A DNA stretch of 64,000 nucleotides from contig JBDRCX010000006.1 of assembly GCA_043821365.1 (NCBI GenBank), positions 288,001 to 352,000 on the forward strand, given 5' to 3'. Each line of letters begins with the position of its first letter. Position 1 is the stretch's first letter. The notes below the pieces were generated by a model. That model made no database searches and had not been told where the DNA came from. It was given only the letters and a program-made list of their open reading frames with translations. Shown in pieces: positions 42,998-59,479 of this stretch. The stretch is from Candidatus Micrarchaeota archaeon (GTDB taxonomy: Archaea > Micrarchaeota > Micrarchaeia > Anstonellales > Bilamarchaeaceae). The position numbers were made by a program, and so were the translations under genes.

Positions 42998-43145
42998 GTC
43001 TGTCTATCATTTACTATGTTTAAATTTTTTTGTTAAATTTTAGTCAGTATAGCATTATTACTGGGATCAAGCCCCCTGAACTAAATAAATCTGATTTATA
43101 AACATATTGTTTCAAATAGTATAAAGTAGTGTGGGAGGATTAGTT

Positions 43146-46100: not shown

Positions 46101-46400
46101 AGTGATGGGACAACAGGTGATGCTGTTGTTGCTATAAGACAAATTGAGAATCGTTGGGTTGATGTAACTGCAGCAGATGGAACAACCCTAGTTATGTACA
46201 GATTACAAAAAACTCCTGAACCTTCACCAGGAACAATAGCTGCTGAAAGTTTCAGAGCTGTTGATGAGGGAGAAGGCAGCATCATGGATGTTTTAGATGC
46301 GGTTTCAGTTAAAACTGCAATTCCAGATGGAGTTGTTAGATTCAAAGGATTTGAAAGTTCTAAGACCAATGCAGGTCTTGTGATTACAAAAATTAAATAA
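43146..46400 (+). CDS. Giant secreted protein with a Tat-like signal peptide
   Basis: GGAGGA SD before ATG 43146; VFRRYFG followed by a hydrophobic core and PAAA-QE; mostly helical, with a beta-rich C-terminus. Confidence 0.75.
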   Translation: MGGPRLTRSEDKHLYSHSERCRPGHGSNVFRRYFGIGLTSLLLFGGINMATTVRPAAAQEHKEDQRITQAKEQLAGAISAIGSSFSQSRDFGIPNPSVNASSRLVSGEEGLVTLLAQHNGRLRQMTGGVDVFPVTGSTSEEQFVSLNAWLGKEHKACPDCTVSPAMEGRTATSPIDQATLDVINTRIQSALTTPGAFSAAAAVAAVTTVHRPAGEETRTERLPADIVPKPIISDALYTGVVSELDLIIENPESTPVGHEALRHREKLATLKAGGEAKQDDLRVAYRAAKVFSVAHIDASTRLRDDALAAEREAARLEAERARVPPAEREAQAYHHSMVTKALEIASQSTAILGSYKPTEPGVRAAYDKMTERLNALSQQCTSLQGKPKVTFEEANEVYTQTLLAADAVATMDILMKYASVNGLAGLSGRPATEFWKSYTGLVSLIGKEGTTESQYDDAVAGLYSEVSGKLTTTISSDIRSSVEAIARLRIRKAGFYFERARVTMTAGETLSLESTQLMLDQAMRAVEDSGATVPNEMLELSKQWRASSTDPVLLYSLAHSLISIREAELWTSDKTASMRPSTTDPATLQAARTRVELAKQAFMWNFSKPQLDPTYYLNMSTALADDAIHMVVPALRFTEGSAGVKSGFEYNNTGPGMPNQFDSAMLVERSHLVVLAAVRDLDLRSAIQLHSAKQDTRGDYALPGLFSRLTTAERLATGLPTFDQSKGRVYLLGADPDLNMSGAVLHDAPGFDRYGLGYSVARREAVLTANASSPYLLRSSGFLSELNITTGQFVSGQITGQQLLTTVADKRIAELEARLGTVLERNITIAELPNRNPGEERVYYVTRAKEALEQARTLRGQTDLVSLQRSIEVAELGLEGLSTAHLTGLVPEQSLEFPCEVTALDTRRLGPAIYMIAHADVSVNVDGSVQSLAEYERVEGKQRLLYSWQFYTNPGFDSNYYLVNPKYGAEREPEFIGRVVRGMEFSDGTTGDAVVAIRQIENRWVDVTAADGTTLVMYRLQKTPEPSPGTIAAESFRAVDEGEGSIMDVLDAVSVKTAIPDGVVRFKGFESSKTNAGLVITKIK

Positions 46401-46410
46401 GGGTGGAAAA

Positions 46411-46596
46411 ATGAGATGTACAAGAGAATCGGAGGGAAGGAAACCTGAATCTGTTAGTCAACGAAATCCAGCAATTAAATTTGCAGCTGCAGCAGCACGC
46501 GGATTGGTTTTAACAACTGGATTCGGTTTAACTCTTGTTGCGTCACCGGGACAATTTATTAATTCTGGCGTCCCAATACCATTAGCATTCACGTGA
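46411..46596 (+). CDS. 61-aa small protein with a hydrophobic segment
   Basis: Fills the gap between two large genes; GGGTGG SD-like motif upstream. Confidence 0.45.
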   Translation: MRCTRESEGRKPESVSQRNPAIKFAAAAARGLVLTTGFGLTLVASPGQFINSGVPIPLAFT

Positions 46597-46607
46597 GGTG
46601 ACTAAAT

Positions 46608-48842
46608 ATGGCACAAACGCAACAAGATAGGGGTATGGTTAGTGGAAACAGTGATTTTAGCGCTATAACTAGCCAGTGGAAACATTCTACTTCAAGGAGT
46701 GAAGATCCTGGAATTGTATTAAATGGTGGGTCAATTTTTGCACGAGCAGCAAACTTTGTAGTTATACATGACATGATTAAATTTTTAGAAGGCCCAAGGC
46801 CAAAAGAAGGAACCCCTGAAAGGGCAACCTATGATGAAGCAATTCAAGGAATAGGTGGTGGGGAAAAAGAAACAACAATTTGGATGTTGAAGAAAATGCA
46901 CGGTGTCATCCTAATTGATCTTTCTAGAGCTGTTCATTCAAGACAGGATCTTGCAGATGAAAATCTTGCCGAATCAACCGAAAGAGTTTTGTTAGATCTT
47001 TCTAAAGGAGTTGGTACTCTTGATCAAAATTATGCTGAATATCTTCAAACTGATGTTTATCAATCAATAGCTAGATTATATGAGAGTTTAAGTAGAACAT
47101 CAAGTGCTGAAGATGCGCCATTAGCTAGACGATCACTTGGTGTTGCAGAATCTCCAGTTTATAGAAGATACCCAGATACAGATCAAAGAAGAGTTGTGTT
47201 CGAAAGAGTTTCTGAACAACAACCTGGATTTTATGGGAATGCTAGTTTATCTGATTCACTTGTTTCTGCCTTTGGTGGTAATCAGGATCAAGCAAACCAA
47301 TTTTTAGAATCTGTTCTCAAAGGCTACAAAGCAATTGCACTGGGTGAAAGCACTTCTCAAGCAGTTAGTGGTCTTCAAACAGCATTAGCCAATCTAAAAG
47401 CATCTGGTTCAAGGATTGCAGATGATCCTGCATTTAAAGCAGCTGAACAAGCACTTTCAAACGGAGATCTGAAAGGAGCGTTACAGAGTCTTTATGATAT
47501 TCGTCCACTTCAAGGTTTGTGGCAGAACTTAGACAAGTTTACTGTCGTTACGATGGACAATCTTGCTTTTACATATCTTGATGTTAGGGGTATGGTTGAA
47601 ATAAAAATCAGAGGAAAAGAAGGAGGCCCTACTCCTGAAGAATTATTTGAGAGGGCAAGAGCACAACTAAACCCAACAAGCACTGAATTTTTTGGTTTCA
47701 CGAAAATACGTTTTGGTGCCCATTACAAACTAAATCAATACTATGGAAGAGCTGATACTTATGAACTAAATCCATCAACTGCAGAGTTGACTAGGGTTTC
47801 ATCCGATCCTTTGAGTGGTCTTGGGCATGTTATAACTGCTCCATTTGAAGCCTACATGTCAGGTATAGTGAAAGGTATGCCATATCATATTGTACTTTAT
47901 ACAGAGCCAGGAGTTGAAACATGGAAACTTGATGAAGCAAGTATCAGAACAATTGATTCTTCGGGACAAACAGCCATCCAAAAAATAAAACTCGATGATA
48001 CTAATTTCCATTTAGGTCCAACTGGTCTTGAATTCCAAATGCCGGGTACTGGCGAAAGAAGGCTATTCAGCGTTCAAAGTGTTGGTCTTGAATTCACTGG
48101 TTCAAGTGCAAGATCTCATTTTGTTGATCAAGTGATTTTGTATACTAGACTCGAAGGTACTGCATATGAATCAGGGGGGTTTGCTATTATGGGAAGAGCC
48201 AGAGTTAGTGCGGCACTGAATGTAGGAAGTACAATTGAAGAAAAGCCATCTGGAGCATTTACAATAAGAGGAGAGCCAGTTAACTTCGTCATTAGTAATA
48301 ACGACGGTACTTTCCTTGTTGGTCCAGTTGCTGATGCAACCTACGAAATTACTGGAAGTGAAGCATATAGACACATGGTCCATTGGGGTGCAGGTGCACA
48401 CTTTGCATGGGTTGAGCCAAAATATGGAGTTCAACTAGGTGCAGGATTTGGTTATGGTAGAGTTGGCGAATTGGGTCCATCTCCACATGGTGGATTTACT
48501 GGTTCATTGAATGTTACTGTGCCATTTGGTGGAGGTAGAACTGCTCCAGCCAAAGCAGTAGAAGCACGAGATATCCCAGCAATCTATGGAACTGCAGTTG
48601 AATTTGCAGCACAACCAGAAGCATTGGTTAATGGCCCAGCTGGCCAAGCTCTTGCGCAACAAACAGCAGCAATGATCGATAGAAATCTTGCTGATTCAAG
48701 TGATGCAGAGCGTATACGTACTGATGTTGACTACAAGGCTGCAATAATTGCATTAAGAGAAGGTGATCTTGAGTCAGGAGTAACTTTGTTAAGAAAAGTT
48801 GCTGAAAAATACCCGACTGTTTTCACCAAAGCAGGTGAATGA
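46608..48842 (+). CDS. Hypothetical protein, C-terminal half a candidate transmembrane beta-barrel
   Basis: GAGGTGA SD; repeated alternating Gly/aromatic strands in residues about 365-645. Confidence 0.7.
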   Translation: MAQTQQDRGMVSGNSDFSAITSQWKHSTSRSEDPGIVLNGGSIFARAANFVVIHDMIKFLEGPRPKEGTPERATYDEAIQGIGGGEKETTIWMLKKMHGVILIDLSRAVHSRQDLADENLAESTERVLLDLSKGVGTLDQNYAEYLQTDVYQSIARLYESLSRTSSAEDAPLARRSLGVAESPVYRRYPDTDQRRVVFERVSEQQPGFYGNASLSDSLVSAFGGNQDQANQFLESVLKGYKAIALGESTSQAVSGLQTALANLKASGSRIADDPAFKAAEQALSNGDLKGALQSLYDIRPLQGLWQNLDKFTVVTMDNLAFTYLDVRGMVEIKIRGKEGGPTPEELFERARAQLNPTSTEFFGFTKIRFGAHYKLNQYYGRADTYELNPSTAELTRVSSDPLSGLGHVITAPFEAYMSGIVKGMPYHIVLYTEPGVETWKLDEASIRTIDSSGQTAIQKIKLDDTNFHLGPTGLEFQMPGTGERRLFSVQSVGLEFTGSSARSHFVDQVILYTRLEGTAYESGGFAIMGRARVSAALNVGSTIEEKPSGAFTIRGEPVNFVISNNDGTFLVGPVADATYEITGSEAYRHMVHWGAGAHFAWVEPKYGVQLGAGFGYGRVGELGPSPHGGFTGSLNVTVPFGGGRTAPAKAVEARDIPAIYGTAVEFAAQPEALVNGPAGQALAQQTAAMIDRNLADSSDAERIRTDVDYKAAIIALREGDLESGVTLLRKVAEKYPTVFTKAGE

Positions 48843-48843
48843 T

Positions 48844-51843
48844 ATGAAATATTTTTTTGCTTTTCTTTTATTAAGTTCTGTTCTGTTTGCAACTAATGTT
48901 AATGCAGATTTTGAACAGCAAAGTTCTGGTTATCAAACAGATACTAGTATGCAATTTACAACTAGTTTTGTTCTGTCTCTTCATTCAGGTGAAGTAATTA
49001 GTGGTGACCCAAATGATCTTGAGACTGGTGATTCAGTTTGTACTGGCGCAAGATTAACAATAACCCCAACTGTAAATGCAAAATGGGCAACTAGTGGAGG
49101 ATCTCCAGATTTTGATGCGGATGCAATTTTCCCAGTTTGCGATCCTGCATATGAACCATACTGTCCATCAACCTCAAGTCTTGGTTCTGTTTCAAATAAC
49201 CGTAATATAAATTGGTTGTCTTCTTCTAGACGCAGTTATTTTGTATCACATTTTTCAAGTCCAAATGATTATCTTTATGGTTATTCAGATCATTCTAATC
49301 TTGCTGAACTTCAAAGTGTTTATAATGAACTTTCACCATTTTCATCCCAGCCTGTGACTTACCATGTTGAATTTGGCGGTCCAACTTACAGTAACAAAAG
49401 AGGGGAAGTTGGAGTTTATTGCGATGGTACTCTAAGATTAAGTGGCGGTGGTGGATCTACTACTAGAGCATCACCATTTTCTACTTCAAGCTGGACATCA
49501 AGTACAATTAATACTCCTGGAAGCTATGATTTCAAAACACAAATAGAAGGCATTGATTGTTTTGGAGTTGTTCTAAAATATCCTACAAATCTAAATGATG
49601 GTCATTCAGAATTTTTCTATATGAACTTTTATACTGACAATCTTCCAAGTATAACAAGTCCAGCTGCTGTTTCAACAGTTACAATTGATATTGAGGAAGA
49701 CGGTGGTGAATGTTCAATTGCTCTTGGAACACAACCAATAGAAATAACCTATGGCAGTCAAATTGGAGATCTACAAAATTTCATGGTTAAAGCACAAATA
49801 AGGAATACTGGTGCAGATGCAATTAACCTTACTGGTTCAATTGTCAGTTCTAATGCTGATTATGTTGCACTTGCATTCCCAACAGCTAGCTGTGGTGTTC
49901 TTGGAATACCCCCAGCATTGTGTCCTGCTTCAAATGGATTTGAAACTTCTCTTTCTGCAGGTGTCTCTAGGTATGTTTATATCTGGTTAGTTGATACAGA
50001 TGCTGCTGCAAGCGGTGGTACAACCTTAACAGTTTATGCTGAGACTTCCTCTCCTATGTGTGGGGATGCAGAAGAATGTTCAGTCGATATTGATTTAACA
50101 GGGCCAATAACATGTGAAGTAGTTCCTGATCCTATGGATGTTCCTGAGAATTATGAACAAAGATTCAATGTTACTTGTACTGACCTTGACCTTGATCCAA
50201 TTGCATGTTCAGGAACTGATTGGGCATGGGTACCTGGAACTTTCGGTACAATTTCTACACATACAAATACCTATGTGCTTGCCACTCCAACAGCAGCAGT
50301 TGGTTCAACTGGTGAAATTGAATATACCTCTGATGATGTGGCGGTTTGCAGTGCTCAGGTTACAGTTTTACCTGATATTGACACTCCAGTTGAATGTACA
50401 ATAGTTCCACCAAATGCAGATGTTGGTCAAATGGAACTTGCACAATTCAATGTTACTTGTATTAATTCACTAGGCGATGAGATTCCATGTGCCAGTACTA
50501 ATTGGTACTGGGAAATGGGATTCTCCGGATATTTTGTCACTCAAACTGAGGAAGATGCAACTGTTTATTCTGATGAAGCAGTTGGTTCAACTGGCGAGCT
50601 TTTCTTTGAACCTTCAATTTATGCAATTTGTTCTGCAAATATGACTATAATCTCACCAACATATGTGTGTGTTTTTGATCCTGATGATGTTATTGTAAAT
50701 ATGACTGATTCACAACACTTCAATTTCACCTGCTATGAAAATCTTGCTGAGACAGACCCTGATGATGCAGAATATAATCTAATCAATACTCTTACTGGTG
50801 TTTTATCAAATGATGATATTCATGGTGTTGATTATACTGCTCCTGCGCTTGGTACTGAAGGAGATGTTGAAGGAATTGGTTATTTTGATACAGGCACTCA
50901 TATAATTGGTGCAGTTGATTGGGCGCATGTACTTGTTCCAGATGAAAATTCACCAACTGATTGTACAATCACTCCTGCTGTTTATTCAATGGGCCCATAC
51001 GAATGGGCAACATTCGAGGTTGAATGTACAAATTTCTTTGGGGTGCCAGTTGCCTGCGTTGGTAATAATTGGTATTGGGGAGATGGACTTACTGGGGGTT
51101 TTATATCAGCAACAAATACTGAAGCTGAAGCATATTCAACATCTTCAGTTGGTTCAACTGGTAAACTTTATTATGCATCAATTGATGCCCTTTGTTTCTC
51201 AGATGTAACCTTGATTGCACCAACATATGTCTGCGATCTTACTCCAGACAGTGTTGTGTTAGCATATTCAGACAGTCAGCACTTTGACTTTGCATGTACT
51301 GTAGCTGGAGTCGCAACTGCTCCTGATGACTCTGATTATCAGCTTGTTGATGGTTTAACAGGAAGCCTGTCAAACCCAGCAATTAATGGTGTTGATTATG
51401 ATGCACCTGCTGTTGACAGCCAAGGTAATGTGCTTGCAGTTGGAACATTCAATGCTGCTCCAGCACCATTGGGTGGTGCAGTTGATCTTTCATTTGTAAG
51501 GGTTCAAAACGACACAGAAGAATGCGTTGGTGATGACTGCAATCCAGGGGACAGTGATGATTGTAGAATTCTTGCACCAAGCCCATGGTTTGTTTCAGAA
51601 GGAACTAGTGCCTGGGTTGGAATCATGTGTGGTGTTGATGGTGACGAAGTTTGCTCAAGTGTTGTTTGGAGCCTAGGTCCACCAACTGCTGGTTGGGTTC
51701 ATAACGGTAACAATCATGGAACATGGTATACCATCACAGGGAATCCAGGACAAACAGGAACACTTTATGCAGAAGTTGGCACTGATGCAGAATGTTACAG
51801 AGATTTTGAAATCGTTGAGCAAGACTGCGATGATTTATCTTAA
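48844..51843 (+). CDS. Secreted acidic Cys-rich protein with tandem ~90-aa Ig-like repeats (adhesin candidate)
   Basis: Signal peptide MKYFFAFLLL...VNA; six C-terminal repeats with C...F.VTC...C...W.W...VGSTG...C pattern. Confidence 0.8.
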   Translation: MKYFFAFLLLSSVLFATNVNADFEQQSSGYQTDTSMQFTTSFVLSLHSGEVISGDPNDLETGDSVCTGARLTITPTVNAKWATSGGSPDFDADAIFPVCDPAYEPYCPSTSSLGSVSNNRNINWLSSSRRSYFVSHFSSPNDYLYGYSDHSNLAELQSVYNELSPFSSQPVTYHVEFGGPTYSNKRGEVGVYCDGTLRLSGGGGSTTRASPFSTSSWTSSTINTPGSYDFKTQIEGIDCFGVVLKYPTNLNDGHSEFFYMNFYTDNLPSITSPAAVSTVTIDIEEDGGECSIALGTQPIEITYGSQIGDLQNFMVKAQIRNTGADAINLTGSIVSSNADYVALAFPTASCGVLGIPPALCPASNGFETSLSAGVSRYVYIWLVDTDAAASGGTTLTVYAETSSPMCGDAEECSVDIDLTGPITCEVVPDPMDVPENYEQRFNVTCTDLDLDPIACSGTDWAWVPGTFGTISTHTNTYVLATPTAAVGSTGEIEYTSDDVAVCSAQVTVLPDIDTPVECTIVPPNADVGQMELAQFNVTCINSLGDEIPCASTNWYWEMGFSGYFVTQTEEDATVYSDEAVGSTGELFFEPSIYAICSANMTIISPTYVCVFDPDDVIVNMTDSQHFNFTCYENLAETDPDDAEYNLINTLTGVLSNDDIHGVDYTAPALGTEGDVEGIGYFDTGTHIIGAVDWAHVLVPDENSPTDCTITPAVYSMGPYEWATFEVECTNFFGVPVACVGNNWYWGDGLTGGFISATNTEAEAYSTSSVGSTGKLYYASIDALCFSDVTLIAPTYVCDLTPDSVVLAYSDSQHFDFACTVAGVATAPDDSDYQLVDGLTGSLSNPAINGVDYDAPAVDSQGNVLAVGTFNAAPAPLGGAVDLSFVRVQNDTEECVGDDCNPGDSDDCRILAPSPWFVSEGTSAWVGIMCGVDGDEVCSSVVWSLGPPTAGWVHNGNNHGTWYTITGNPGQTGTLYAEVGTDAECYRDFEIVEQDCDDLS

Positions 51844-51946: not shown

Positions 51947-54511
51947 CTACATTGATTTAAACTCAACTATCATCTTTTCGAGTTCATCACTTGTCTGATA
52001 AATTATTGAGCTGCTCTCAGCTTCCATCTTTATAATTAGGGGAACTGTTGAAGCTGTTGAATTCATAATGTTCTGAAAATGACTCTTGTCACTGTTGTTC
52101 TTGAATACAATTATTGTAATCCCACTTTTTATTGTTGTTAATAATCTAGTGAGGAAGTCTTCTACCTTGATTCCTTTTTCGTAAATATGAATATACATCT
52201 GCTGTCCCATCACAGTTAGTACTGTGTCTGAATTCTTTGCCTCCCCAATAAGTGTAAATGGGATTGCGTTATTCACACAAATATCTCTTATTTTTCTCAT
52301 CATTGCAAGATATTCAATTGTTCTTTTGCTTTGTCCTTCCCAGTTTACCTTACCATAATATCCAAGTGATTCTTTTACCAAATCTCTTTTTTCCATCTCC
52401 TGAAGAATAAATTCAACATTATAGTCTGTTATGTATATTGGTTTACCTTGGTGTAGCACTTGTTTGAACGCGTTTTTTATCTCTCCTGGTGTTAGTGGGG
52501 TGTTCTCCCAGCGATAATTCTCATTAACCTTGTCAAATAAATTCAAAATAACATCTGCTTGGAGAGGTATTTTAGTTTTTGTTATTGGGGGGAAATCTGG
52601 TATATCTAATGAATAATATGTTTCTTCTTGCCTTGCAAATACCATACCAACTCCCATAATTCCTCCTGTAAATATTATAACAAGCCATACAACTGGATTT
52701 TCTAGAGGAGTTGACATTCTTGGGTGGGGGATATCAACTACTGTCGTAAGCTTTCCTGATGTAAATTCAAATTTATGTGTTTCCCCTATTGGCAATCTAT
52801 CATTTCCAGTATAAGAACCAACATTCACATCCAAATATTCACTATTACTAAAACTATATTCACCAAATCTACCATCGTCGACCTTAACTGTTATTTGGCT
52901 TAGTTTAAGTGCTTCATCATCCATAGTTACGTAAAATCTATATACTGAAGGTTTATCTTTTACCCCGCCAATGTATGTTACTTCTGGGGTTATAACCTTC
53001 ATGTATGTTTGTGCATATTCCTTTCCATTGTCATCTTCAAGATTTACTAGGTATTCGCCTTTCTCCACATAGACTCTAATGTCAAATGATCTATCTGCCT
53101 GGACATTAACATTTCCCTGTGGGAGGGTCTGCATGTCAGTTCCATTAATATCTTCGATAATTATTGACATGCTTGGCTGGGATGGAACAGGTTCACGAAG
53201 AAGTGCATTTATTCTTACTGGACTATCAGAAATATTCGTTGGTACGACGTTTCCACTTGATTCTATGAACATTTGATTTGGTGTTTGCAATTCAATTCTC
53301 TTGAATAACATCTCTTTTATCGGTGTGGATACTTTTTCCGAGTATCCGGTAAATTCAACCTTCACTGTCGTGTTGCTTTCTTGGAAAGTTTCTGAGAAAA
53401 AATATGATGTTCCATTGTAACCATCTTGGTTCTCGAAATAATATGTTTTGGTGTTTGAACTTGGGCTTATCCATGCTGTTTTGAATATGACATTTGAAAC
53501 ATCATTTGCTGCGCTAGTATAATTCCCCCTCCATCCCCCATCAAGGGTTTGTGGGAAAAATAGGAAAGCACCATCCCCTTTTTTTATTACACTAATGCCC
53601 CCATATAGGGTACTTGCTGTCCACTTGCTCCTTGCATTTACTAAATAAAGAGGCTGATAAATATGCAGTTCCTGAGTTGGGCTTATTGGACTTGTTTCAT
53701 CAAATGTAACTGGTAGGCTACTTACAACGCTTGTTGGTGTATCAGTTACCAATGTACCGTCTAATATTTTTGTGAATTTCTGTCCTAAGTATATAACTAC
53801 TATGCCTCGGTCTGCTAACTTATCCATAGATACTAAACTGTCAATACCTAACATTTCCTTTGGTATTACTCCGCTTGGTACAATAACTATTCCACCCTGC
53901 GGCAGTGTTTCTAATTGTCTTATCGTTATTTCATTTAGCATAAGATTTCTTTTCTTCAGTTCCGTCCTAAGGCTATATAAAAAGTCAGGATAGCTATCTG
54001 CCTCAAGTTTTTCACTATTTAAAATAAAAATTTCAGTAGGTATTTTCTGGTTGAATGTTGTTATGTTGATCGTATAATTGTCTATGTTACTTGTTTTGTA
54101 ATCTATCACTACCCCTGCGATGTGGGTGGGCGTGTTCTTCTGCCCAGACATCAATATAGATCCGTCTATTAACATATTTTCTATTGTGGGTCTCTCCATC
54201 TCTTCCTGCGTTAGCCCTGTTCCCGGAGCAAGAACCTGTGTTGTGAGGTATATCCACCCAACTGCAAGTATGATAATCGCTATTAAGGCAAATGCCCCAA
54301 AAATCCCAAAACTAAATCCTCCTTTTGGAGGTTCTGGCAATGCCCTAGTCTCTTTTTTCTCTTGTTTTTTTGGTGGTTTTATAAATGTTTTAATTGCGTC
54401 TTTGATCTTTTCTATTGGGGGACGTTCTTTTATTTTGTAGTTCACAGTCTGGTGGTATTTTTTTCTGATGTCGAAGTTGTAAATTTTTTTCCTTATTCTT
54501 GTTTCTGGCAT
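51947..54511 (-). CDS. Large 2-TM membrane protein with a ~500-aa extracellular domain
   Basis: TM near residues 68-90 and 608-628; last gene of the ATPase operon. Confidence 0.75.
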   Translation of the reverse strand: MPETRIRKKIYNFDIRKKYHQTVNYKIKERPPIEKIKDAIKTFIKPPKKQEKKETRALPEPPKGGFSFGIFGAFALIAIIILAVGWIYLTTQVLAPGTGLTQEEMERPTIENMLIDGSILMSGQKNTPTHIAGVVIDYKTSNIDNYTINITTFNQKIPTEIFILNSEKLEADSYPDFLYSLRTELKKRNLMLNEITIRQLETLPQGGIVIVPSGVIPKEMLGIDSLVSMDKLADRGIVVIYLGQKFTKILDGTLVTDTPTSVVSSLPVTFDETSPISPTQELHIYQPLYLVNARSKWTASTLYGGISVIKKGDGAFLFFPQTLDGGWRGNYTSAANDVSNVIFKTAWISPSSNTKTYYFENQDGYNGTSYFFSETFQESNTTVKVEFTGYSEKVSTPIKEMLFKRIELQTPNQMFIESSGNVVPTNISDSPVRINALLREPVPSQPSMSIIIEDINGTDMQTLPQGNVNVQADRSFDIRVYVEKGEYLVNLEDDNGKEYAQTYMKVITPEVTYIGGVKDKPSVYRFYVTMDDEALKLSQITVKVDDGRFGEYSFSNSEYLDVNVGSYTGNDRLPIGETHKFEFTSGKLTTVVDIPHPRMSTPLENPVVWLVIIFTGGIMGVGMVFARQEETYYSLDIPDFPPITKTKIPLQADVILNLFDKVNENYRWENTPLTPGEIKNAFKQVLHQGKPIYITDYNVEFILQEMEKRDLVKESLGYYGKVNWEGQSKRTIEYLAMMRKIRDICVNNAIPFTLIGEAKNSDTVLTVMGQQMYIHIYEKGIKVEDFLTRLLTTIKSGITIIVFKNNSDKSHFQNIMNSTASTVPLIIKMEAESSSIIYQTSDELEKMIVEFKSM

Positions 54512-54529
54512 TTATCTCCCACCATCTAA

Positions 54530-55291
54530 TTACCGTACAATCTCCAAATATCCTTCGTTTACAAGTTTATTCAGTAGTTCTTCTACGCGTGCATTTGAAA
54601 CACTATATAATTTTGTGAACTCACCGATGTTTATGGATCCATTATGTTCTGCAATCCATTCTTGTAATTTTGCTTTGAGTGCATCTTCGCTCAAGCCCTC
54701 AAGCTCCTTAACTCTAATGGAAAGCTCGTCATTTTTGCTTTTTAAGTCATAGTTTTGTGTTGTCAATGCTTGATTTTGTTCATTTAGTCTGTTTATTTTT
54801 TTCTTGTAATCATCAACTTCTTTTTTAAGAGAATCATAGGAAGTGAAAAGTTTGGTGTAATCCATTGTTACTGAACCAGTCAATTCCTTTACTGCATTTT
54901 CAATAAGTTGGTATAATGTCTTTTGATCTACTTCGTAAGTCCCTTCAACCAAACTCAAAATGTTAAGTAAATATCTAAGAATGTCCATACGTCTCTTGTT
55001 CGGTCCAATTTCAGGTGGGATGGTATATAATATGTCTAATCCATCTTCTTTTAGTTTAATGATGGAAAATAAGTATGGATTTTTGTTTATGTCCCTGCTT
55101 TCAACATAAAGTATGTTTAGGACATCTTTCTCTGGTGCTATTTCAAGGAAGGATATTGAACGTAACAATCCGCCCAGGTCTTTTAGTTTTCCTTTTTTTA
55201 ACTTTCCTTTTATTTTGAATCCATCTACCTGTGGTGGATGGGTTTCTTCTTTTGCACCTTGTGGTTTTGGTTTGATTGGTAGATCAGGCAT
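54530..55291 (-). CDS. Coiled-coil protein with C-terminal wHTH-like region
   Basis: Heptad region YDSLKKEV...KELEG. Confidence 0.7.
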   Translation of the reverse strand: MPDLPIKPKPQGAKEETHPPQVDGFKIKGKLKKGKLKDLGGLLRSISFLEIAPEKDVLNILYVESRDINKNPYLFSIIKLKEDGLDILYTIPPEIGPNKRRMDILRYLLNILSLVEGTYEVDQKTLYQLIENAVKELTGSVTMDYTKLFTSYDSLKKEVDDYKKKINRLNEQNQALTTQNYDLKSKNDELSIRVKELEGLSEDALKAKLQEWIAEHNGSINIGEFTKLYSVSNARVEELLNKLVNEGYLEIVR

Positions 55292-55296
55292 TTATC

Positions 55297-55719
55297 TCAC
55301 CTTTTTTTCTTCGTTCGTTTTTTTACTGGCCTTTTCTTTTTTACCTGTTTTAGTACTAGTGGTTCTTTGAAAACTGCTGGGGTGTATTTGAATATTGGAA
55401 GTGCAATAACTGCTCCTGCAAGTATAAATGCAGAAATAATAGGCCACAAATCTAACCGTCCTGATAAGACTATGGAAAGTATTATTACTACAAGTATAAG
55501 TCCTGCAAGTACGGTTGCAATCATCATGCTTTTTTCAAATGATTTTCTTCTTTCAGAATGGTTCTGAAGATCTTTGGCACAAACATACAGCTCATTCATT
55601 TGAGCTACGCCGAATTTTCTTTTTACTGCCCTTATGGTTGTTATTATCCTGTCCTCTTTTATCGGCAAGGCTTCTTTACCATCCACATTTGTTTGACAAA
55701 TTACACAAACCTTTCCCAT
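55297..55719 (-). CDS. Zn-ribbon plus 2-TM membrane protein
   Basis: CVIC...YVCAKDLQNH, two TM helices, basic tail. Confidence 0.7.
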   Translation of the reverse strand: MGKVCVICQTNVDGKEALPIKEDRIITTIRAVKRKFGVAQMNELYVCAKDLQNHSERRKSFEKSMMIATVLAGLILVVIILSIVLSGRLDLWPIISAFILAGAVIALPIFKYTPAVFKEPLVLKQVKKKRPVKKRTKKKR

Positions 55720-55723
55720 ATAA

Positions 55724-57304
55724 TCACTCTAATGTAACCTGACTTACATCTCTTCCAATACCGCCGCTTTTCTTCAAGTCAACTTTACCAAATATGTTTA
55801 TCACTGTCATATCATCTATTCCTGCATCTTTGAGGAATTCATTTATGTTTCGACGTGCTATACCACTTCTCTCAAGCATAATAACAAATGATACAACATC
55901 CATACGTCTGCTGTTCTTTTCAAATGATTTTGCAAAATCTTCGACCTTATCATCTGCCAATCCGAATTGACGTAATCTTCTTCTGAAATCTTCTTTTTGG
56001 AATGAAACACTTCTAGACACGGATACATCCCTCCTTTGTTTTTCTGTTAAAACTTCCGTCATATCCAAGAAAAATTCTCTACTTGGTTCTTCCCCTTCTA
56101 TCTTATCTATGAGGAAAGTTGATGCATATGGTACTTGTGAAGTTAAGGACAGGTTGACGGCACACTGTCCAACACCTAATCTGCTTATTTCATCACGCAT
56201 ATAATTGCTGAAATTTAATGATCCCTGAAGATAATCAAGGAACTTTTCAAATTTGACTTTAAGCATAAATGTGGTTCCTACGTTGCTGAATATTGCCTCA
56301 CTTATATCTGTTGGGTTCTGCGACGCTATAATCATAGCGAAATTATATTTTCTACCTTCTCTGACTATCATGACTGCGTCGCTGTTTTCATCCTTTCCTA
56401 TTTTCCAAGCCTCATCCAAAACCACCAACAACCTAAGTCCTTTGTGGTGCGCCCAACCTTCAAGTCTCATTTTTTCTTTTATGAACTGGAGTATGGTAAG
56501 GGCAGCCAGTGCTCTTGCAGTTTCATCAGGAAGACCAGACAAATCAAGGTCAACAAGACCCGAACTTACAAGTTGGTCGAGCTTCACTGTACTTTGTTGT
56601 GCGAAGAAATCTTCACCTGGTTTTGTAAATTGTTTAAGTCTGTAAATTGCATTTTCAAGTTCTGCTGGAAATTCATATGACCCTACCTGTGCCTGTTCAG
56701 TTAATATTCTTACAACATCTTTGAGTGTTGGTGCTATGAGTGGTTTACCTAGTTCATCTTTCTGTTCATGAGCATCCATTCTGAATTTCCCTTCGATATA
56801 TACTTTTTCTATGGCCTGCTCGGTCAGCCTTCTTTGTTCCGGATAATTTCCAATATCAGTAAGAAGTTCAAGTGTTCTCATAACTTGTTTTATACGATCG
56901 TATGGTTTCATTCCACCAAGGTCAAGTAGGTTGAGGTAGGATCCTCTACCAAGTGCAACTACCTTACCATCAGTTTGTCTTACCCAATCTCTATATTCTC
57001 CTGCCCAGTCGATTATAAGTGCATTACTATTCCAAACAAATGCGGTTCTAAGCAAAAATGTCTTGATAAAATAACTTTTACCTGCACCAGATATCCCAAC
57101 AACTGCTATGTGTGGATTGGCTATGCCCTGGTAACTCCAGTAAAACGGTACATTGAATATTTTCGTTCTTCCTATATAGATAGAATCTGTTGGGTCTGGG
57201 AAAAGGACATCCATCGGGGGTTCTGGAGGCCTGACAAGAATGTTTCTTCGTGATACAGCACTATTTGGAACTTTGGATAGATACAGTTTTCCCCCTATTG
57301 GCAT
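55724..57304 (-). CDS. VirB4/HerA-like (DUF87) ATPase
   Basis: NPHIAVVGISGAGKS Walker A, IIDWAGEY, LVVLDEAW Walker B, REGRKY, ASQ. Confidence 0.88.
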   Translation of the reverse strand: MPIGGKLYLSKVPNSAVSRRNILVRPPEPPMDVLFPDPTDSIYIGRTKIFNVPFYWSYQGIANPHIAVVGISGAGKSYFIKTFLLRTAFVWNSNALIIDWAGEYRDWVRQTDGKVVALGRGSYLNLLDLGGMKPYDRIKQVMRTLELLTDIGNYPEQRRLTEQAIEKVYIEGKFRMDAHEQKDELGKPLIAPTLKDVVRILTEQAQVGSYEFPAELENAIYRLKQFTKPGEDFFAQQSTVKLDQLVSSGLVDLDLSGLPDETARALAALTILQFIKEKMRLEGWAHHKGLRLLVVLDEAWKIGKDENSDAVMIVREGRKYNFAMIIASQNPTDISEAIFSNVGTTFMLKVKFEKFLDYLQGSLNFSNYMRDEISRLGVGQCAVNLSLTSQVPYASTFLIDKIEGEEPSREFFLDMTEVLTEKQRRDVSVSRSVSFQKEDFRRRLRQFGLADDKVEDFAKSFEKNSRRMDVVSFVIMLERSGIARRNINEFLKDAGIDDMTVINIFGKVDLKKSGGIGRDVSQVTLE

Positions 57305-58119
57305 CAGACCACACTCTCTTCAAGTTCCTGAGGAGTTATTGGGAAAAAGCGGTCCCATTCAAAACACTTCATCATTTCGTCTCCAGTAAGTAAGCTTACC
57401 TCGACATTCAAAGCATTTTCAAGGTTACCTCTAAGTTCTTTTGCTTGTGAACGTACCACAGACATTGCTGCATCTTTACTTATACCAACTGCTGTTGTTT
57501 GTGCATATGCAATAATGCCCATCGGTTTAACTCCCTTAACTAATCTAGCAAGTTCATTGTCTTCTTTTTGAACTTCTCTCTCAAATTTGTCCATTTTCAG
57601 TACATCTGGCTGTGCCTTGTCTCTTTCACGTGCAAGTTTTAGCTGTGCTTCAGCTCTTCTTGTTTCAATTGATTTCCTTTTTGCTGTTACATCTTCTACG
57701 TAAAGCATATATGAGATTTTTGTGACGTATTTTATGTTTGAAATTGCACGCTCAAAAAATTGACTATAAATTAAATTTTCCTCTTGTGTTTTTTCTGTTG
57801 CGGATTCAAAAATTTTCATTCCCAGAAAAGCAGATGCATAGTAAACTCCCCCGACGTTTTTTACAATAACATCTTGACTCGGAGGGATTTCGTATCCGCT
57901 ATCAGTCATCATTACTATGTTTGTTCTGGTCGTTACTAATGGTATCATTATGTATCCATATCTCCAAAACAACACTCCAAGAAGTGCTCCAGTTCCAGCG
58001 GCCAATCCACCTAATATGGAGAGTATTCCACCTCCTCCAATTAATGCAAAGAGTGCTCCTAAAACTCCTACTGCTATAGCACCTATAGTATATGTTTTAG
58101 ATCCACTTACTGCCGTCAT
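57304..58119 (-). CDS. Membrane protein resembling PrgI/VirB3 fused to a VirB4 N-terminal-like domain
   Basis: Gly-rich TM hairpin, coiled coil, C-terminal AYAQTTA...ELRGNL...LL...F...FFP; stop overlaps the ATPase ATG. Confidence 0.6.
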   Translation of the reverse strand: MTAVSGSKTYTIGAIAVGVLGALFALIGGGGILSILGGLAAGTGALLGVLFWRYGYIMIPLVTTRTNIVMMTDSGYEIPPSQDVIVKNVGGVYYASAFLGMKIFESATEKTQEENLIYSQFFERAISNIKYVTKISYMLYVEDVTAKRKSIETRRAEAQLKLARERDKAQPDVLKMDKFEREVQKEDNELARLVKGVKPMGIIAYAQTTAVGISKDAAMSVVRSQAKELRGNLENALNVEVSLLTGDEMMKCFEWDRFFPITPQELEESVV

Positions 58120-58171
58120 ATATTACCTCTTAATTCTAATTAGCTGCGAAAGTATATAAAGACTGGCAACA

Positions 58172-59479
58172 TCATTCAACAGCTTCTTCTACAATTCTTT
58201 TTGCACTACCAATATATGTAGAATATTTGAATATTTCGTCTGCTTCATTTGCTCCAAGCAATCCACTTTCCAAAACAAGCTCTTTCAGGTGTCTTTTTTT
58301 TGCAAATGCCTCATGAGCCATGTTTCTTACTTTCTCATGTGCATCCTGTCTTCCCATATCCTTCTTCTCAACCAAATATATCATCAATCTCTCTGCTAGA
58401 ATAAGGCCGTTTGTCAATTCTAGATTTTTCTTTATGTTATCAGGATAGAAAACAAGTCCACTCACTATCTTTGTTATTTCATGGGCCATATAATCAACAG
58501 TGACAAAACTCTCACTGAAAATAGCTCGTTCATTTGCACTGTTAGTAAGATCTCTTTCATGTTCTAGGGCGTTATTCTCAATAGCAGTTAGCACATTTGC
58601 ACGAACAAGGCGTGCAAGGGAGCAGATCCGTTCACTTTTATGCGGGTTTCTTTTCTGAGGCATTGTGGATGAACCAACTTGTTTTGCACTGAATGCTTCT
58701 GAAACTTCAAGAATCTCTGTTCTTTGGAGGTTTCTTATCTCCTTGGCTATTTTTTCAAATAATGATGCAGTTGTGGCAAGTATAAATACTATCTCTGCAT
58801 GACGATCTCTCTGGATGACCTGATTTGTAATTTTTGCACTTTCTAATCCAAGTTCTGCCATGACTATCTTCTGTATCTTTTGCCCATCCTTACCGAAAGT
58901 TGCCATTGTTCCAACTGCGCCGGACATCTTACCAACGGCTATTCTTTTTTTTGCTTCTTTCAATCTCTCTAAATTACGTCTTAATTCTTGATAATAAAGT
59001 GCAAATTTCATGCCGTATGTTGTTGGTACTGCATGCTGTCCATGTGTTCTCCCCACACAAACGGTTTCTTTATGTTGCAATGCTAGTTTTTTCAATTCTT
59101 TACCAAAGTTTTCCAATTGTTTTTCAATTATTTCCATTGCATCAAGGAAAATCAATGCAGTTGCTGTATCTTCAATGTCATAACTAGTAGCACCAAGATG
59201 AACATACTTACCAGCATCTCCTGCTTGTTCTGTAAGTGCTTTTACCATTGCCATAAGGTCATGTTGTATCTGAGATTCTATCTCCACAACTCGTTCATGT
59301 TTTACTTTTTTCATTGCCTGTTCTATTTTTCCAGGAGCATCTTTTGGTATGTTCCCAAGTTGTGCATGTGCTTTTGCTAAAGCCACCTCTACACGCATCC
59401 ATTTGTTTATTTTATTCTGGTCCTCAAAAACACTATTCATCTCTGTCCTGTATCTTTCTTCAAATGGAGAAATTGCCAT
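58172..59479 (-). CDS. purB: Adenylosuccinate lyase
   Basis: HLGATSYDI, GRTHGQHA, GAVGT, GSSTMPQKRNP, EHERDL. Confidence 0.96.
   Translation of the reverse strand: MAISPFEERYRTEMNSVFEDQNKINKWMRVEVALAKAHAQLGNIPKDAPGKIEQAMKKVKHERVVEIESQIQHDLMAMVKALTEQAGDAGKYVHLGATSYDIEDTATALIFLDAMEIIEKQLENFGKELKKLALQHKETVCVGRTHGQHAVPTTYGMKFALYYQELRRNLERLKEAKKRIAVGKMSGAVGTMATFGKDGQKIQKIVMAELGLESAKITNQVIQRDRHAEIVFILATTASLFEKIAKEIRNLQRTEILEVSEAFSAKQVGSSTMPQKRNPHKSERICSLARLVRANVLTAIENNALEHERDLTNSANERAIFSESFVTVDYMAHEITKIVSGLVFYPDNIKKNLELTNGLILAERLMIYLVEKKDMGRQDAHEKVRNMAHEAFAKKRHLKELVLESGLLGANEADEIFKYSTYIGSAKRIVEEAVE

Follow-up and report, generated by a model that had tools for sequence, protein, structure and literature searches.

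The Sulfolobales and Desulfurococcales Ced system comprises CedA, CedA1, CedA2 and CedB, together with CedD and CedE, and the Ted system occurs in Thermoproteales (PMC9905601, PMC11868833). Within Ced, the VirB4 N-terminal domain is divided between CedB and CedD, which contain different portions of it (PMC11868833). Patescibacteria, which are ultra-small symbionts with reduced genomes, possess a phylum-wide, chromosomal and relaxase-less T4SS centered on VirB4, which keeps recognizable MPF-FATA parts, VirB2-like pilins and an unsplit VirB4 (PMC12102498). In nanohaloarchaea, SPEARE-type proteins combine an ectodomain, a transmembrane (TM) helix and a VirB4/TraG-like ATPase in one giant polypeptide, with a second VirB4 matching PF03135 adjacent to it (PMC10266531). 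Here we analyzed a five-gene operon that shares features with each of these systems, located in a 64,000-nucleotide stretch of DNA (the window) from a 1.2-Mb, 87% complete Micrarchaeota (DPANN) assembly. The source organism is a congener of Ca. Bilamarchaeum dharawalense. We know of no transport machinery attributed to Micrarchaeota so far, and our literature survey, which was incomplete in coverage, revealed no published description of this system in the phylum.

The operon occupies positions 51947-58119 and consists of five minus-strand genes encoding, in order, proteins of 271, 526, 140, 253 and 854 amino acids (aa). All five open reading frames proposed in the initial annotation are present and tightly packed, with intergenic gaps in gene order of -1, 4, 5 and 18 nt. 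The first of these is the annotated overlap (ATGA) between the stop codon of the 271-aa gene and the start codon of the ATPase gene, and the purB gene said to flank the operon was readily recognized by its family match:

58172-59479, minus strand: purB (TIGR00928, E = 3.5e-151), 52 nt upstream of the operon
58120..58171, minus strand: 52-nt spacer separating purB from the first gene, read from the sequence
57304..58119, minus strand: 271-aa membrane anchor gene (open reading frame)
55724..57304, minus strand: 526-aa ATPase gene (open reading frame)
55297..55719, minus strand: 140-aa protein gene (open reading frame)
54530..55291, minus strand: 253-aa protein gene (open reading frame)
51947..54511, minus strand: 854-aa protein gene (open reading frame)

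The spacer contains TTTATATA, an archaeal TATA-like box, and AGAGGT, a Shine-Dalgarno-like site, so the operon probably has its own promoter there, a function that we infer from these motifs. The GC content of the operon is that of its surroundings. TM prediction and AlphaFold2 models indicated that three of the five products are membrane proteins. The five genes are real, judging by orthologs found in the same order in distant Micrarchaeota.

The 526-aa protein is a P-loop motor of the HerA/FtsK/VirB4 superfamily, VirB4/CedB-like in character, with no TM helix and ~40 residues before the motor. It carries a Walker A motif (GISGAGKS, residues 70-77), a Walker B motif (LDEAW, with D297 and E298) and the conserved arginines of REGRKY; G70, G73, G75, K76, S77, D297 and E298 are invariant in 23 ATPase sequences. 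Its C-terminal ~100 residues (429-526) fold into a helical module, which in some lineages has a gene of its own. Pfam matches were to DUF87 (2.4e-14), AAA_10 (1.2e-13) and the TraG P-loop (1.9e-9), while NCBIfam yielded CedB (6.5e-21), CD1110 VirB4 (5.5e-19), CedD and VirB4_plasma, all ranked above HerA models. The motor aligns end to end with models of bacterial VirB4 proteins (TrwK of R388, TraC of F and the CD1110/PrgJ type of monoderms), with residues 41-379 matching positions 393-721 of 752 in the CD1110 VirB4 model, and the best matches in a plasmid tblastn search were to TraC. No curated cut-off was reached: the ATPase scored 74.6 bits against the CedB equivalog NF041017 (cut-off 700, or roughly ten times the score), 67.9 bits against the CD1110 VirB4 model NF045971 (cut-off 325), 35.7 bits against TIGR00929 (cut-off 643), 39.5 bits against TIGR02746 (cut-off 567) and 17.4 bits against FtsK/SpoIIIE PF01580 (cut-off 24, over residues 49-89 only).

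Some of these matches are also consistent with a HerA-type ATPase that serves repair, defense or chromosome segregation and is unrelated to envelope transport. DUF87, the best Pfam match, is the HerA central domain, defense HerA chains top the PDB and PADLOC searches, and the coiled-coil 253-aa partner has weak matches to ZapB, YabA and DivIC. In the PDB search with the ATPase profile, defense-type HerA chains scored 69 bits versus 54 bits for VirB4, over residues 250-380 only, indicating that the VirB4 and HerA clades cannot be told apart by the motor domain alone. However, HerA matches are confined to the C-terminal half of the motor and the coiled-coil matches are generic. The ATPase has no HAS-barrel match in Pfam, whereas a separate 503-aa HerA elsewhere in the genome has one (PF09378, 1.5e-6), along with DUF87 (2e-34). 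No NurA, Sir2, DUF4297 or similar partner, nuclease included, was found among the other four operon proteins in Pfam, NCBIfam or PADLOC, and the operon instead encodes three membrane proteins, one with an ectodomain of ~500 aa. These results argue against a HerA-NurA-type ATPase and do not refute the initial annotation, and the HerA-type reading, already weakened here, is highly unlikely.

The 271-aa protein begins with two predicted TM helices (~15-50), followed in its AlphaFold2 model (pLDDT 79) by an alpha/beta and helical-hairpin domain at residues 74-260. When this model was searched with Foldseek, the top 10 rows were all TrwK/VirB4 (E = 2e-3, probability 1.0). VIA-align placed residues 74-260 onto residues 221-376 of TrwK (8rtd_g) with a Z score of 11.9 and an r.m.s.d. 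of 2.9 Å over 146 residues, compared with Z ~8 for the best unrelated rows. Against representative PDB chains, VIA-align results were swamped by helical-hairpin matches, among which only its coverage of the whole model set the VirB4 row (Z 8.0) apart. In TrwK, residues 221-376 make up the latter half of the VirB4 N-terminal domain, and only that half is matched. Ordinary sequence searches, in contrast, revealed nothing meaningful in Pfam (including PF03135), NCBIfam, PADLOC, PHROGs or PDB sequences, whether the protein was used singly or as a profile, and just 1 of 29 orthologs matched a VirB4 model (VirB4_plasma, 2.2e-4). The initial annotation had likened this protein to the N-terminal domain of Gram-positive conjugative VirB4 proteins: the VirB4 likeness is evident in the predicted fold though not in ordinary sequence searches, and its Gram-positive character was not sustained, as the match is to TrwK of the Gram-negative R388 and is not Gram-positive-specific.

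Combined, the two proteins amount to 797 aa, near VirB4 length. The proposal that VirB4 is encoded here as two chains, a 271-aa module resembling the N-terminal domain and a 526-aa motor, therefore holds at the level of modeled folds and profile alignments: the anchor resembles TrwK at Z 11.9, the motor aligns with VirB4 and CedB models and a paralogous pair is collinear with CedB. As in Ced, the VirB4 N-terminal domain is only partial and distributed over polypeptides; unlike in Ced and Ted, one gene encodes the N-terminal module and another the motor. The arrangement likewise differs from bacterial VirB4 in being two-chain, in lacking the first half of the N-terminal domain and in scoring under the curated cut-offs. 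VirB3 is fused to VirB4 in some systems, and the N-terminal TM hairpin of the 271-aa protein recalls VirB3. The split is fixed across the phylum, with no fused anchor and ATPase among the hits listed. The 271-aa family has 274 representatives, of which 150 were listed; all but two of these were shorter than 320 aa and none was long enough for an ATPase fusion. Longer ATPase homologs were also considered as fusions and rejected, since all strong hits of 1004-1654 aa were intein-bearing ATPases, and inteins recur in ATPase orthologs.

A second, paralogous system lies ~200 kb from the operon and has in common with it a 271-aa-type protein, the ATPase and a 253-aa-type protein. Its anchor protein matches the CedB profile at positions 9-175 (E = 0.007) and its ATPase at positions 249-549 (E = 2e-26), both halves being collinear with CedB; the ATPase scored 92.7 bits against NF041017, where the cut-off of 700 was again not reached. 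Among named families, CedB gave the highest score with each of the three ATPase paralog types, the Gram-positive VirB4 model also being at the top. In one family (f1), both paralogous systems adjoin the purine-synthesis genes purB and purD, an adjacency that we regard as a curiosity.

The remaining three proteins belong to no known family. The 140-aa protein has a cytoplasmic, Cys-rich and zinc-ribbon-like N-terminal module (CxxC ... C), a TM hairpin at ~64-112 and a Lys/Arg-rich C-terminal tail. C5 and C47 are nearly invariant in an alignment of 21 orthologs, deep families have CxxC...CxxC, and no family match was found in Pfam or NCBIfam. The 253-aa protein is cytoplasmic and comprises a conserved N-terminal domain (~45-140), a coiled coil (~140-205) and a C-terminal winged helix (~210-253), with W212, H216 and G247 invariant. 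Its winged helix weakly matches EAP30/Vps36 in 20 of 25 members (best 5.2e-6), as well as TrmB, GntR and Rrf2, and an ESM Atlas search with the protein returned no clusters other than its own, from Micrarchaeota.

In the 854-aa surface protein, two TM helices, TM1 at 66-92 and TM2 at 603-625, flank an ectodomain. The N-terminus is cytoplasmic and basic, and the cytoplasmic alpha/beta domain at 649-854 begins with a winged-helix-like unit. In the AlphaFold2 model (pLDDT 80), residues 105-158 of the ectodomain form a beta-sandwich, residues 159-348 a flavodoxin/GATase1-like alpha/beta domain and residues 355-600 tandem macroglobulin/FN3-like beta-sandwiches. Foldseek matched the model to alpha2-macroglobulin and C3 MG domains (E = 5e-9), whereas VIA-align matched residues 159-348 to alpha/beta domains of the GH42/ThuA/IFT52 type (Z 8-10.8) and residues 649-722 to YceH (Z 8.0). 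The protein had no Pfam match and no usable ESM Atlas neighbors. Pairwise identity was lowest in the beta-sandwich ectodomains (18-19%), compared with 33% in the cytoplasmic domain.

Overall, 272 of 301 Micrarchaeota genomes encode an ATPase ortholog. Its identity declines with kinship, from ~78-90% for members of the genus to 64-77% for the family, 57-71% for the order and 52-66% for the remaining families of the class. The 253-aa protein followed the same family pattern, with orthologs in 110 of 120 high-quality genomes, and all five genes kept their order in 16 of 16 loci from distant Micrarchaeota, where the flanks differ. A search for related loci with a single protein returned one locus, in Micrarchaeaceae. 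The initial annotation had noted that the window lacks a relaxase, coupling protein or integrase, and the same was true of the whole 87%-complete genome, in which we found no relaxase (PF03432), coupling protein (PF02534), tyrosine integrase (PF00589) or VirB6/TrbL (PF04610). The phylum-wide, kinship-graded conservation argues for a resident chromosomal machine, not a conjugative element, and on sequence grounds the locus is no mobile element. The earlier description of a domesticated machine is thus upheld as far as residence is concerned, but 'domesticated' assumes a mobile ancestor. Convergent giant genes at 43131-51843 were considered as parts of the system and rejected: among the loci fetched, they are adjacent only in the one same-genus locus reaching that far and are missing beside the operon in a family-level locus extending past its last gene.

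We consider it probable that the operon encodes a resident, vertically inherited Micrarchaeota membrane translocation machine built around a two-piece VirB4/CedB-type motor. Beyond the gene anatomy, folds, conservation and lack of mobile-element context documented above, we infer its assembly, oligomeric state, cargo and cargo direction as follows. The 271-aa protein would sit in the membrane through its TM hairpin, comparable to VirB3 or the CedB N-terminus, and it has the fold of that half of the VirB4 N-terminal domain which lies nearer the membrane. The ATPase, apparently translationally coupled to this anchor, most likely docks on its VirB4-like domain and, by analogy with hexameric VirB4, most likely oligomerizes at the cytoplasmic face. 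The 140-, 253- and 854-aa proteins would probably complete an envelope-spanning complex, the conserved part of the last being its cytoplasmic domain, and ATP hydrolysis would drive a macromolecule across the single membrane.

One alternative keeps the same architecture and has it import DNA, either to recombine it or to draw nucleotides from it, in the manner of Ced in Sulfolobales, which is induced by DNA damage; we regard this as possible but doubtful. The rank of CedB for all three ATPase paralog types points in this direction, as do the winged-helix, zinc-ribbon and basic-tail modules on the cytoplasmic side, the possible nucleic-acid-binding modules of the operon comprising a pair of winged helices, one zinc ribbon and tails rich in Lys/Arg. 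Winged helices and zinc ribbons also serve protein-protein contacts. Like Ced and Ted, the system is chromosomal and archaeal, has a VirB4/HerA-like ATPase with a membrane-anchored motor, and lacks a relaxase and coupling protein (PMC9905601). Unlike them, it contains no CedA/TedA-like channel (CedA has 6-7 TM helices) or CedA1/TedC-like pilin recognizable by the Pfam and NCBIfam family models, which also picked out no VirB6/CedA channel or VirB2/CedA1 pilin in the window. In addition, its three partners have no counterpart in Ced, Ted or any described T4SS, every score is far under the CedB cut-off, and the organism is a mesophilic DPANN archaeon rather than a hyperthermophilic crenarchaeon. 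The adjacency of both systems to purB/purD in family f1 favors DNA import as a curiosity only and is limited to one or two families. Moreover, because purB and purD are encoded in the genome, purine synthesis may not be wholly missing, which argues against DNA import.

The surface protein suggests another reading, in which the motor exports proteins or other material to a host, or builds and maintains a contact structure, with the 854-aa protein facing outward. Its macroglobulin/FN3-like beta-sandwiches are of a kind characteristic of surface and adhesion proteins, and no part of the operon evolves faster. As in the SPEARE-type arrangement, a DPANN surface protein with Ig-like ectodomains would be connected through the membrane with an ATPase resembling VirB4, and the nanohaloarchaeal ATPases linked to giant surface proteins are proposed secretion systems (PMC10266531). 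This comparison is one of architecture, and here, unlike there, the surface protein and ATPase are separate and PF03135 is not matched. The Patescibacteria T4SS is reported to be essential for epibiotic growth in these episymbionts (PMC12102498). The Micrarchaeota system is likewise phylum-wide, chromosomal, VirB4-centered and relaxase-less and belongs to very small symbionts whose genomes are reduced, and the two appear analogous, but the Micrarchaeota VirB4 is split and its partners are unrecognizable. Compared with bacterial T4SS more generally, a family search of the 87%-complete genome revealed no VirB6 or VirD4, there is no mobile-element context, and a general family search recognized no VirB2- or VirB8-like protein in the operon. 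We see no evident genes for effectors, signals or chaperones, the organism has no known host, and the giant secreted proteins at 43131-51843 adjoin the operon only in the single same-genus locus mentioned above. We therefore view host contact or export as rather unlikely.

A third possibility is that the motor assembles a surface filament or envelope structure, with VirB4 acting not as a conduit but as a dislocase that pulls small subunits out of the membrane, a role that has been proposed for T4SS pili. A '368-like' family of membrane proteins (310-580 aa, five to six predicted TM helices) forms arrays of one to five paralogs directly upstream of the operon in deep lineages. The family also accompanies the second system and, in the source genome, is found beside giant proteins. 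It had no match in Pfam, NCBIfam or PDB sequences, its relatives being only unnamed Micrarchaeota proteins. Ced and Ted are known to build pili (PMC9905601), which would fit such a role. However, proteins of this size and topology are unlike VirB2-type pilins, none is present in the window, and the cytoplasmic zinc ribbon makes the 140-aa protein unfit for a pilin. An assembly motor is therefore improbable.

Taken as a resident translocation machine, the operon widens the range of VirB4/CedB motors to a form in which the N-terminal module has a membrane-anchored chain to itself and the partners lack known relatives, which bears on the origin and simplification of conjugation-type machines in archaea. 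The ATPase shows roughly the degree of conservation of housekeeping proteins, and inteins have invaded it repeatedly. By analogy with the systems compared here, the machine would be a good candidate for moving DNA or other large molecules across the Micrarchaeota envelope. More tentatively, the operon and its multi-TM family might form the main macromolecule conduit with other cells, for example for the uptake of host DNA, as a counterpart of the essential Patescibacteria chromosomal T4SS; such a conduit would have a split VirB4 core and a set of partners (a coiled-coil winged-helix protein, a zinc-ribbon hairpin protein and a macroglobulin-like surface protein) that occurs in no described secretion or conjugation system. 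These five phylum-wide genes provide a concrete target that can be followed in existing Micrarchaeota co-cultures, and they may bear on how DPANN archaea obtain material from their hosts.

The five minus-strand ORFs that the initial annotation had described were confirmed at window 51947-58119, encoding proteins of 271, 526, 140, 253 and 854 aa with intergenic gaps of -1, 4, 5 and 18 nt. The source assembly, of which the window is G000:C6:288001-352000, spans 1.2 Mb in six contigs and is 87% complete. By the names of near-identical proteins it belongs to Micrarchaeota, family Bilamarchaeaceae, and proteins of the closest genome sampled bear the name Ca. Bilamarchaeum dharawalense. The GC content of the operon matches that of its surroundings, which are laid out as follows.

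58172-59479: purB (TIGR00928, E = 3.5e-151), 52 nt upstream of the operon
43131-51843, plus strand: three large genes (1089, 744 and 1014 aa), convergent on the operon and with no match in Pfam

In the spacer between purB and the operon, a TTTATATA box together with an AGAGGT site points to a probable separate promoter for the operon. The three large genes are probably outside the system, because the 744- and 1014-aa genes also adjoin the operon in L047, the sole fetched locus of the same genus long enough to show them, but are absent beside it in the family-level locus extending past the last gene.

The soluble 526-aa protein belongs to the P-loop ATPases of the HerA/FtsK/VirB4 superfamily, with Pfam matches to DUF87, AAA_10 and TraG P-loop. 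Its top NCBIfam model was CedB (6.5e-21), followed by the Gram-positive VirB4 family CD1110 (5.5e-19; residues 41-379 on profile positions 393-721 of 752) and then by CedD and a mycoplasma ICE VirB4, with HerA models ranked lower and covering only part of the domain; every score fell far under the curated cut-offs, and the models ranked alike for two paralogous types of the ATPase found in the phylum. Top matches in a plasmid collection (tblastn) were F-type TraC. Against PDB sequences, defence-type HerA chains scored highest, over residues 250-380 only, while VirB4 (4ag5) and DptH aligned over the whole domain, so that on these matches the motor domain alone does not settle VirB4 versus HerA. 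A HAS barrel is missing from this protein and present in a separate 503-aa HerA encoded elsewhere in the genome, both of which help to tell the ATPase from HerA and make a role in repair, defence or segregation unlikely.

Walker A, Walker B and an arginine-rich REGRKY segment were invariant across 23 diverse ATPase sequences. Inteins, one or more per cluster, occur at conserved motifs of the ATPase in ten clusters. In the intein-bearing orthologs, which include proteins P0273-P0282, the insertion lies just past the P-loop region, and in some clusters a length of 1320-1654 aa implies two or three inteins. In three of the Micrarchaeota families sampled (f10, f11 and f12), the final ~100 ATPase residues (window residues 429-526) form a separate gene of ~99 aa.

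L036:8485-11628 (genome G006): intein-bearing ATPase ortholog (Intein_splicing, 1.7e-20; LAGLIDADG_3, 8.7e-24)
L032-L036 and L042, for example L034:9284-9583: separate ATPase C-terminal gene / duplicated 271-aa gene

The 271-aa protein, which has two N-terminal transmembrane (TM) helices, had been proposed to resemble the VirB4 N-terminal domain and to form a two-chain VirB4 with the ATPase. The likeness stood at the level of predicted fold but not in sequence searches, which gave no family match. With an AlphaFold2 model computed from 29 orthologs (pLDDT 79), TrwK/VirB4 of plasmid R388 filled all ten best Foldseek rows against the PDB (E = 2e-3, probability 1.0). A second-look structure alignment placed residues 74-260 on TrwK 221-376 (Z 11.9, rmsd 2.9 Å, 146 residues), with unrelated rows reaching Z ~8 at best; by the domain boundaries of the R388 structures, this segment is the half of the VirB4 N-terminal domain immediately before the motor. 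Sequence support for the anchor as the N-terminal part of VirB4/CedB is thin and agrees in direction: a VirB4 model is matched by 1 of the 29 orthologs (2.2e-4), and the paralog from system 2, a paralogous system in the same genome, matches CedB profile positions 9-175 (E = 0.007), with the system-2 ATPase on positions 249-549 (E = 2e-26). Together, the TrwK-like fold and the collinear profile positions argue that the anchor and ATPase genes reproduce the VirB4/CedB layout cut at the linker between N-terminal domain and motor, which bears out the two-chain proposal.

Division of the VirB4 N-terminal domain itself has a precedent in Ced, where different parts of it lie in CedB and in CedD (PMC11868833), and the tandem duplication of the 271-aa gene in f10, f11, f12 and f15 recalls this arrangement. 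A profile of the 271-aa family found 274 representatives among 1.84 billion proteins; the 150 listed were shorter than 320 aa except for two (366 and 466 aa), and none was long enough for an anchor-ATPase fusion. Longer ATPase relatives were rejected as fusions, their extra length consisting of inteins, and on both counts the two-gene split is fixed.

None of the 140-, 253- and 854-aa partners showed likeness to any described component of a T4SS, Ced or T7SS. The smallest combines a Cys-rich, zinc-ribbon-like cytoplasmic module with a TM hairpin and a basic tail, and in the 253-aa cytoplasmic protein a coiled coil separates a conserved N-terminal domain from a C-terminal winged helix, for which most members give weak matches to EAP30/Vps36, TrmB and GntR. 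In its predicted structure (pLDDT 80), the 854-aa protein runs from a basic N-terminus through a TM helix, an ectodomain and a second TM helix to a cytoplasmic domain that opens with a winged-helix-like unit. In the ectodomain, a beta-sandwich is followed by a flavodoxin/GATase1-like alpha/beta domain (Z 8-10.8 against GH42 trimerisation, ThuA and IFT52-type domains) and then by macroglobulin/FN3-like sandwiches in tandem (Foldseek E = 5e-9). No part of the operon is less conserved than the ectodomain beta-sandwiches, at 18-19% pairwise identity versus 33% for the cytoplasmic domain, which is consistent with an outer part that is exposed and an inner part that faces the machine. Nucleic acid would be the leading candidate cargo, because DNA is what the closest named relatives transport and because winged-helix, zinc-ribbon and basic modules abound on the cytoplasmic side. 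Protein export or host contact would be a comparably defensible role, given that the 854-aa ectodomain is adhesin-like and fast-evolving and that parallels exist in nanohaloarchaea and Patescibacteria.

System 2 opens with 162- and 368-aa multi-TM membrane proteins and a 260-aa anchor paralog, continues with an inserted TM-anchored alpha/beta hydrolase (BD-FAE, 1.7e-36) and a 517-aa ATPase with 42% identity to the window ATPase (BLASTP), and ends with a 234-aa coiled-coil winged-helix paralog and a 91-aa ORF of basic character.

G000:C6:~141700-147700 (L059:8756-14654): system 2, outside the window and ~200 kb away
L059:7436-8737: purD, adjoining system 2

Its anchor, ATPase and coiled-coil protein are kept in all six other same-order genomes checked, and these three therefore make up the invariant triad of both systems. 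The multi-TM protein is kept in four of the six (6 kb away in one), and the hydrolase was found in none of them, only in the genome carrying the window. In family f1, each paralogous system adjoins a purine-synthesis gene, purB or purD, and the purD adjacency recurs in one f6 genome; either chance or a connection with nucleotide supply could account for it. Micrarchaeaceae have a third pair, more divergent than these, again with CedB as the top named family of its ATPase (2.2e-20), and f10 and f11 genomes encode comparably divergent ATPase paralogs (open frames of 371-453 aa) in addition to the main operon.

L048:712-3039 (genome G301): ~245-aa anchor-like protein, then 466-aa ATPase
G108:C1:611185-612033: divergent ATPase paralog
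G016:C1:659862-661094: divergent ATPase paralog
G042:C1:287874-288884: divergent ATPase paralog

The 368-aa protein belongs to a family (310-580 aa, 5-6 predicted TM helices) that forms arrays of 1-5 paralogs directly upstream of the operon in f10, f11 and f12. Its conserved motifs lie around LPxGxxLRxFxxTRxxGG and, C-terminally, GxEVDVSxLxRLI, and it had no match in Pfam, NCBIfam or PDB sequences.

L034:142-6077: array upstream of the operon
L036:13292-17449: array upstream of the operon
L035:11159-15713: array upstream of the operon
L033:11318-16142: array upstream of the operon
L071:4216-11826 and L072:3954-10343: arrays at two further sites in the window's genome, one adjoining 1326- and 748-aa proteins

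As a candidate for a VirB6/CedA-like channel this family is the obvious one, and its members may either form that missing channel or serve as surface subunits.

Across Micrarchaeota, an ATPase ortholog was identified in 272 of 301 genomes sampled and not in f13, f17 or most of f14, and the 253-aa protein followed the same family-by-family pattern (110 of 120 high-quality genomes); these tallies take in the unpublished genomes G029 and G198 (2 of the 301 and 1 of the 120), on which none of the conclusions rests. ATPase identity falls from about 78-90% between members of the genus to 64-77% across the family, 57-71% across the order and 52-66% in the remaining families of the class, a gradient typical of vertical descent. 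All five genes are present in identical order in 16/16 loci fetched from distant families, with the purB adjacency kept solely in the window's own family. No relaxase (PF03432), coupling protein (PF02534) or tyrosine integrase (PF00589) was found in the whole 87%-complete genome, and neither was TrbL/VirB6 (PF04610). With its wide vertical distribution, its constant gene order and no mobility genes found in that genome, the locus is therefore a core chromosomal system and not a conjugative element, in line with the resident machine first suggested. PF00589 was present in 14/14 control genomes; the window's genome either lacks the usual XerA-type resolvase, has it in a portion that is not assembled or encodes a version too diverged for detection.

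To our knowledge, VirB4-type ATPases are known solely as membrane-associated motors of type IV secretion-like machines, which serve in conjugation, effector delivery and DNA uptake or release. Ced/Ted import is one of these machines (PMC9905601). No description of this system from Micrarchaeota was found in the literature searched. It is best classed as a T4SS/Ced-type machine that combines a split motor with unrecognised partners, in which, on the most economical reading, the anchor protein would hold an oligomeric ATPase at the membrane and the resulting complex would move a macromolecule across it.
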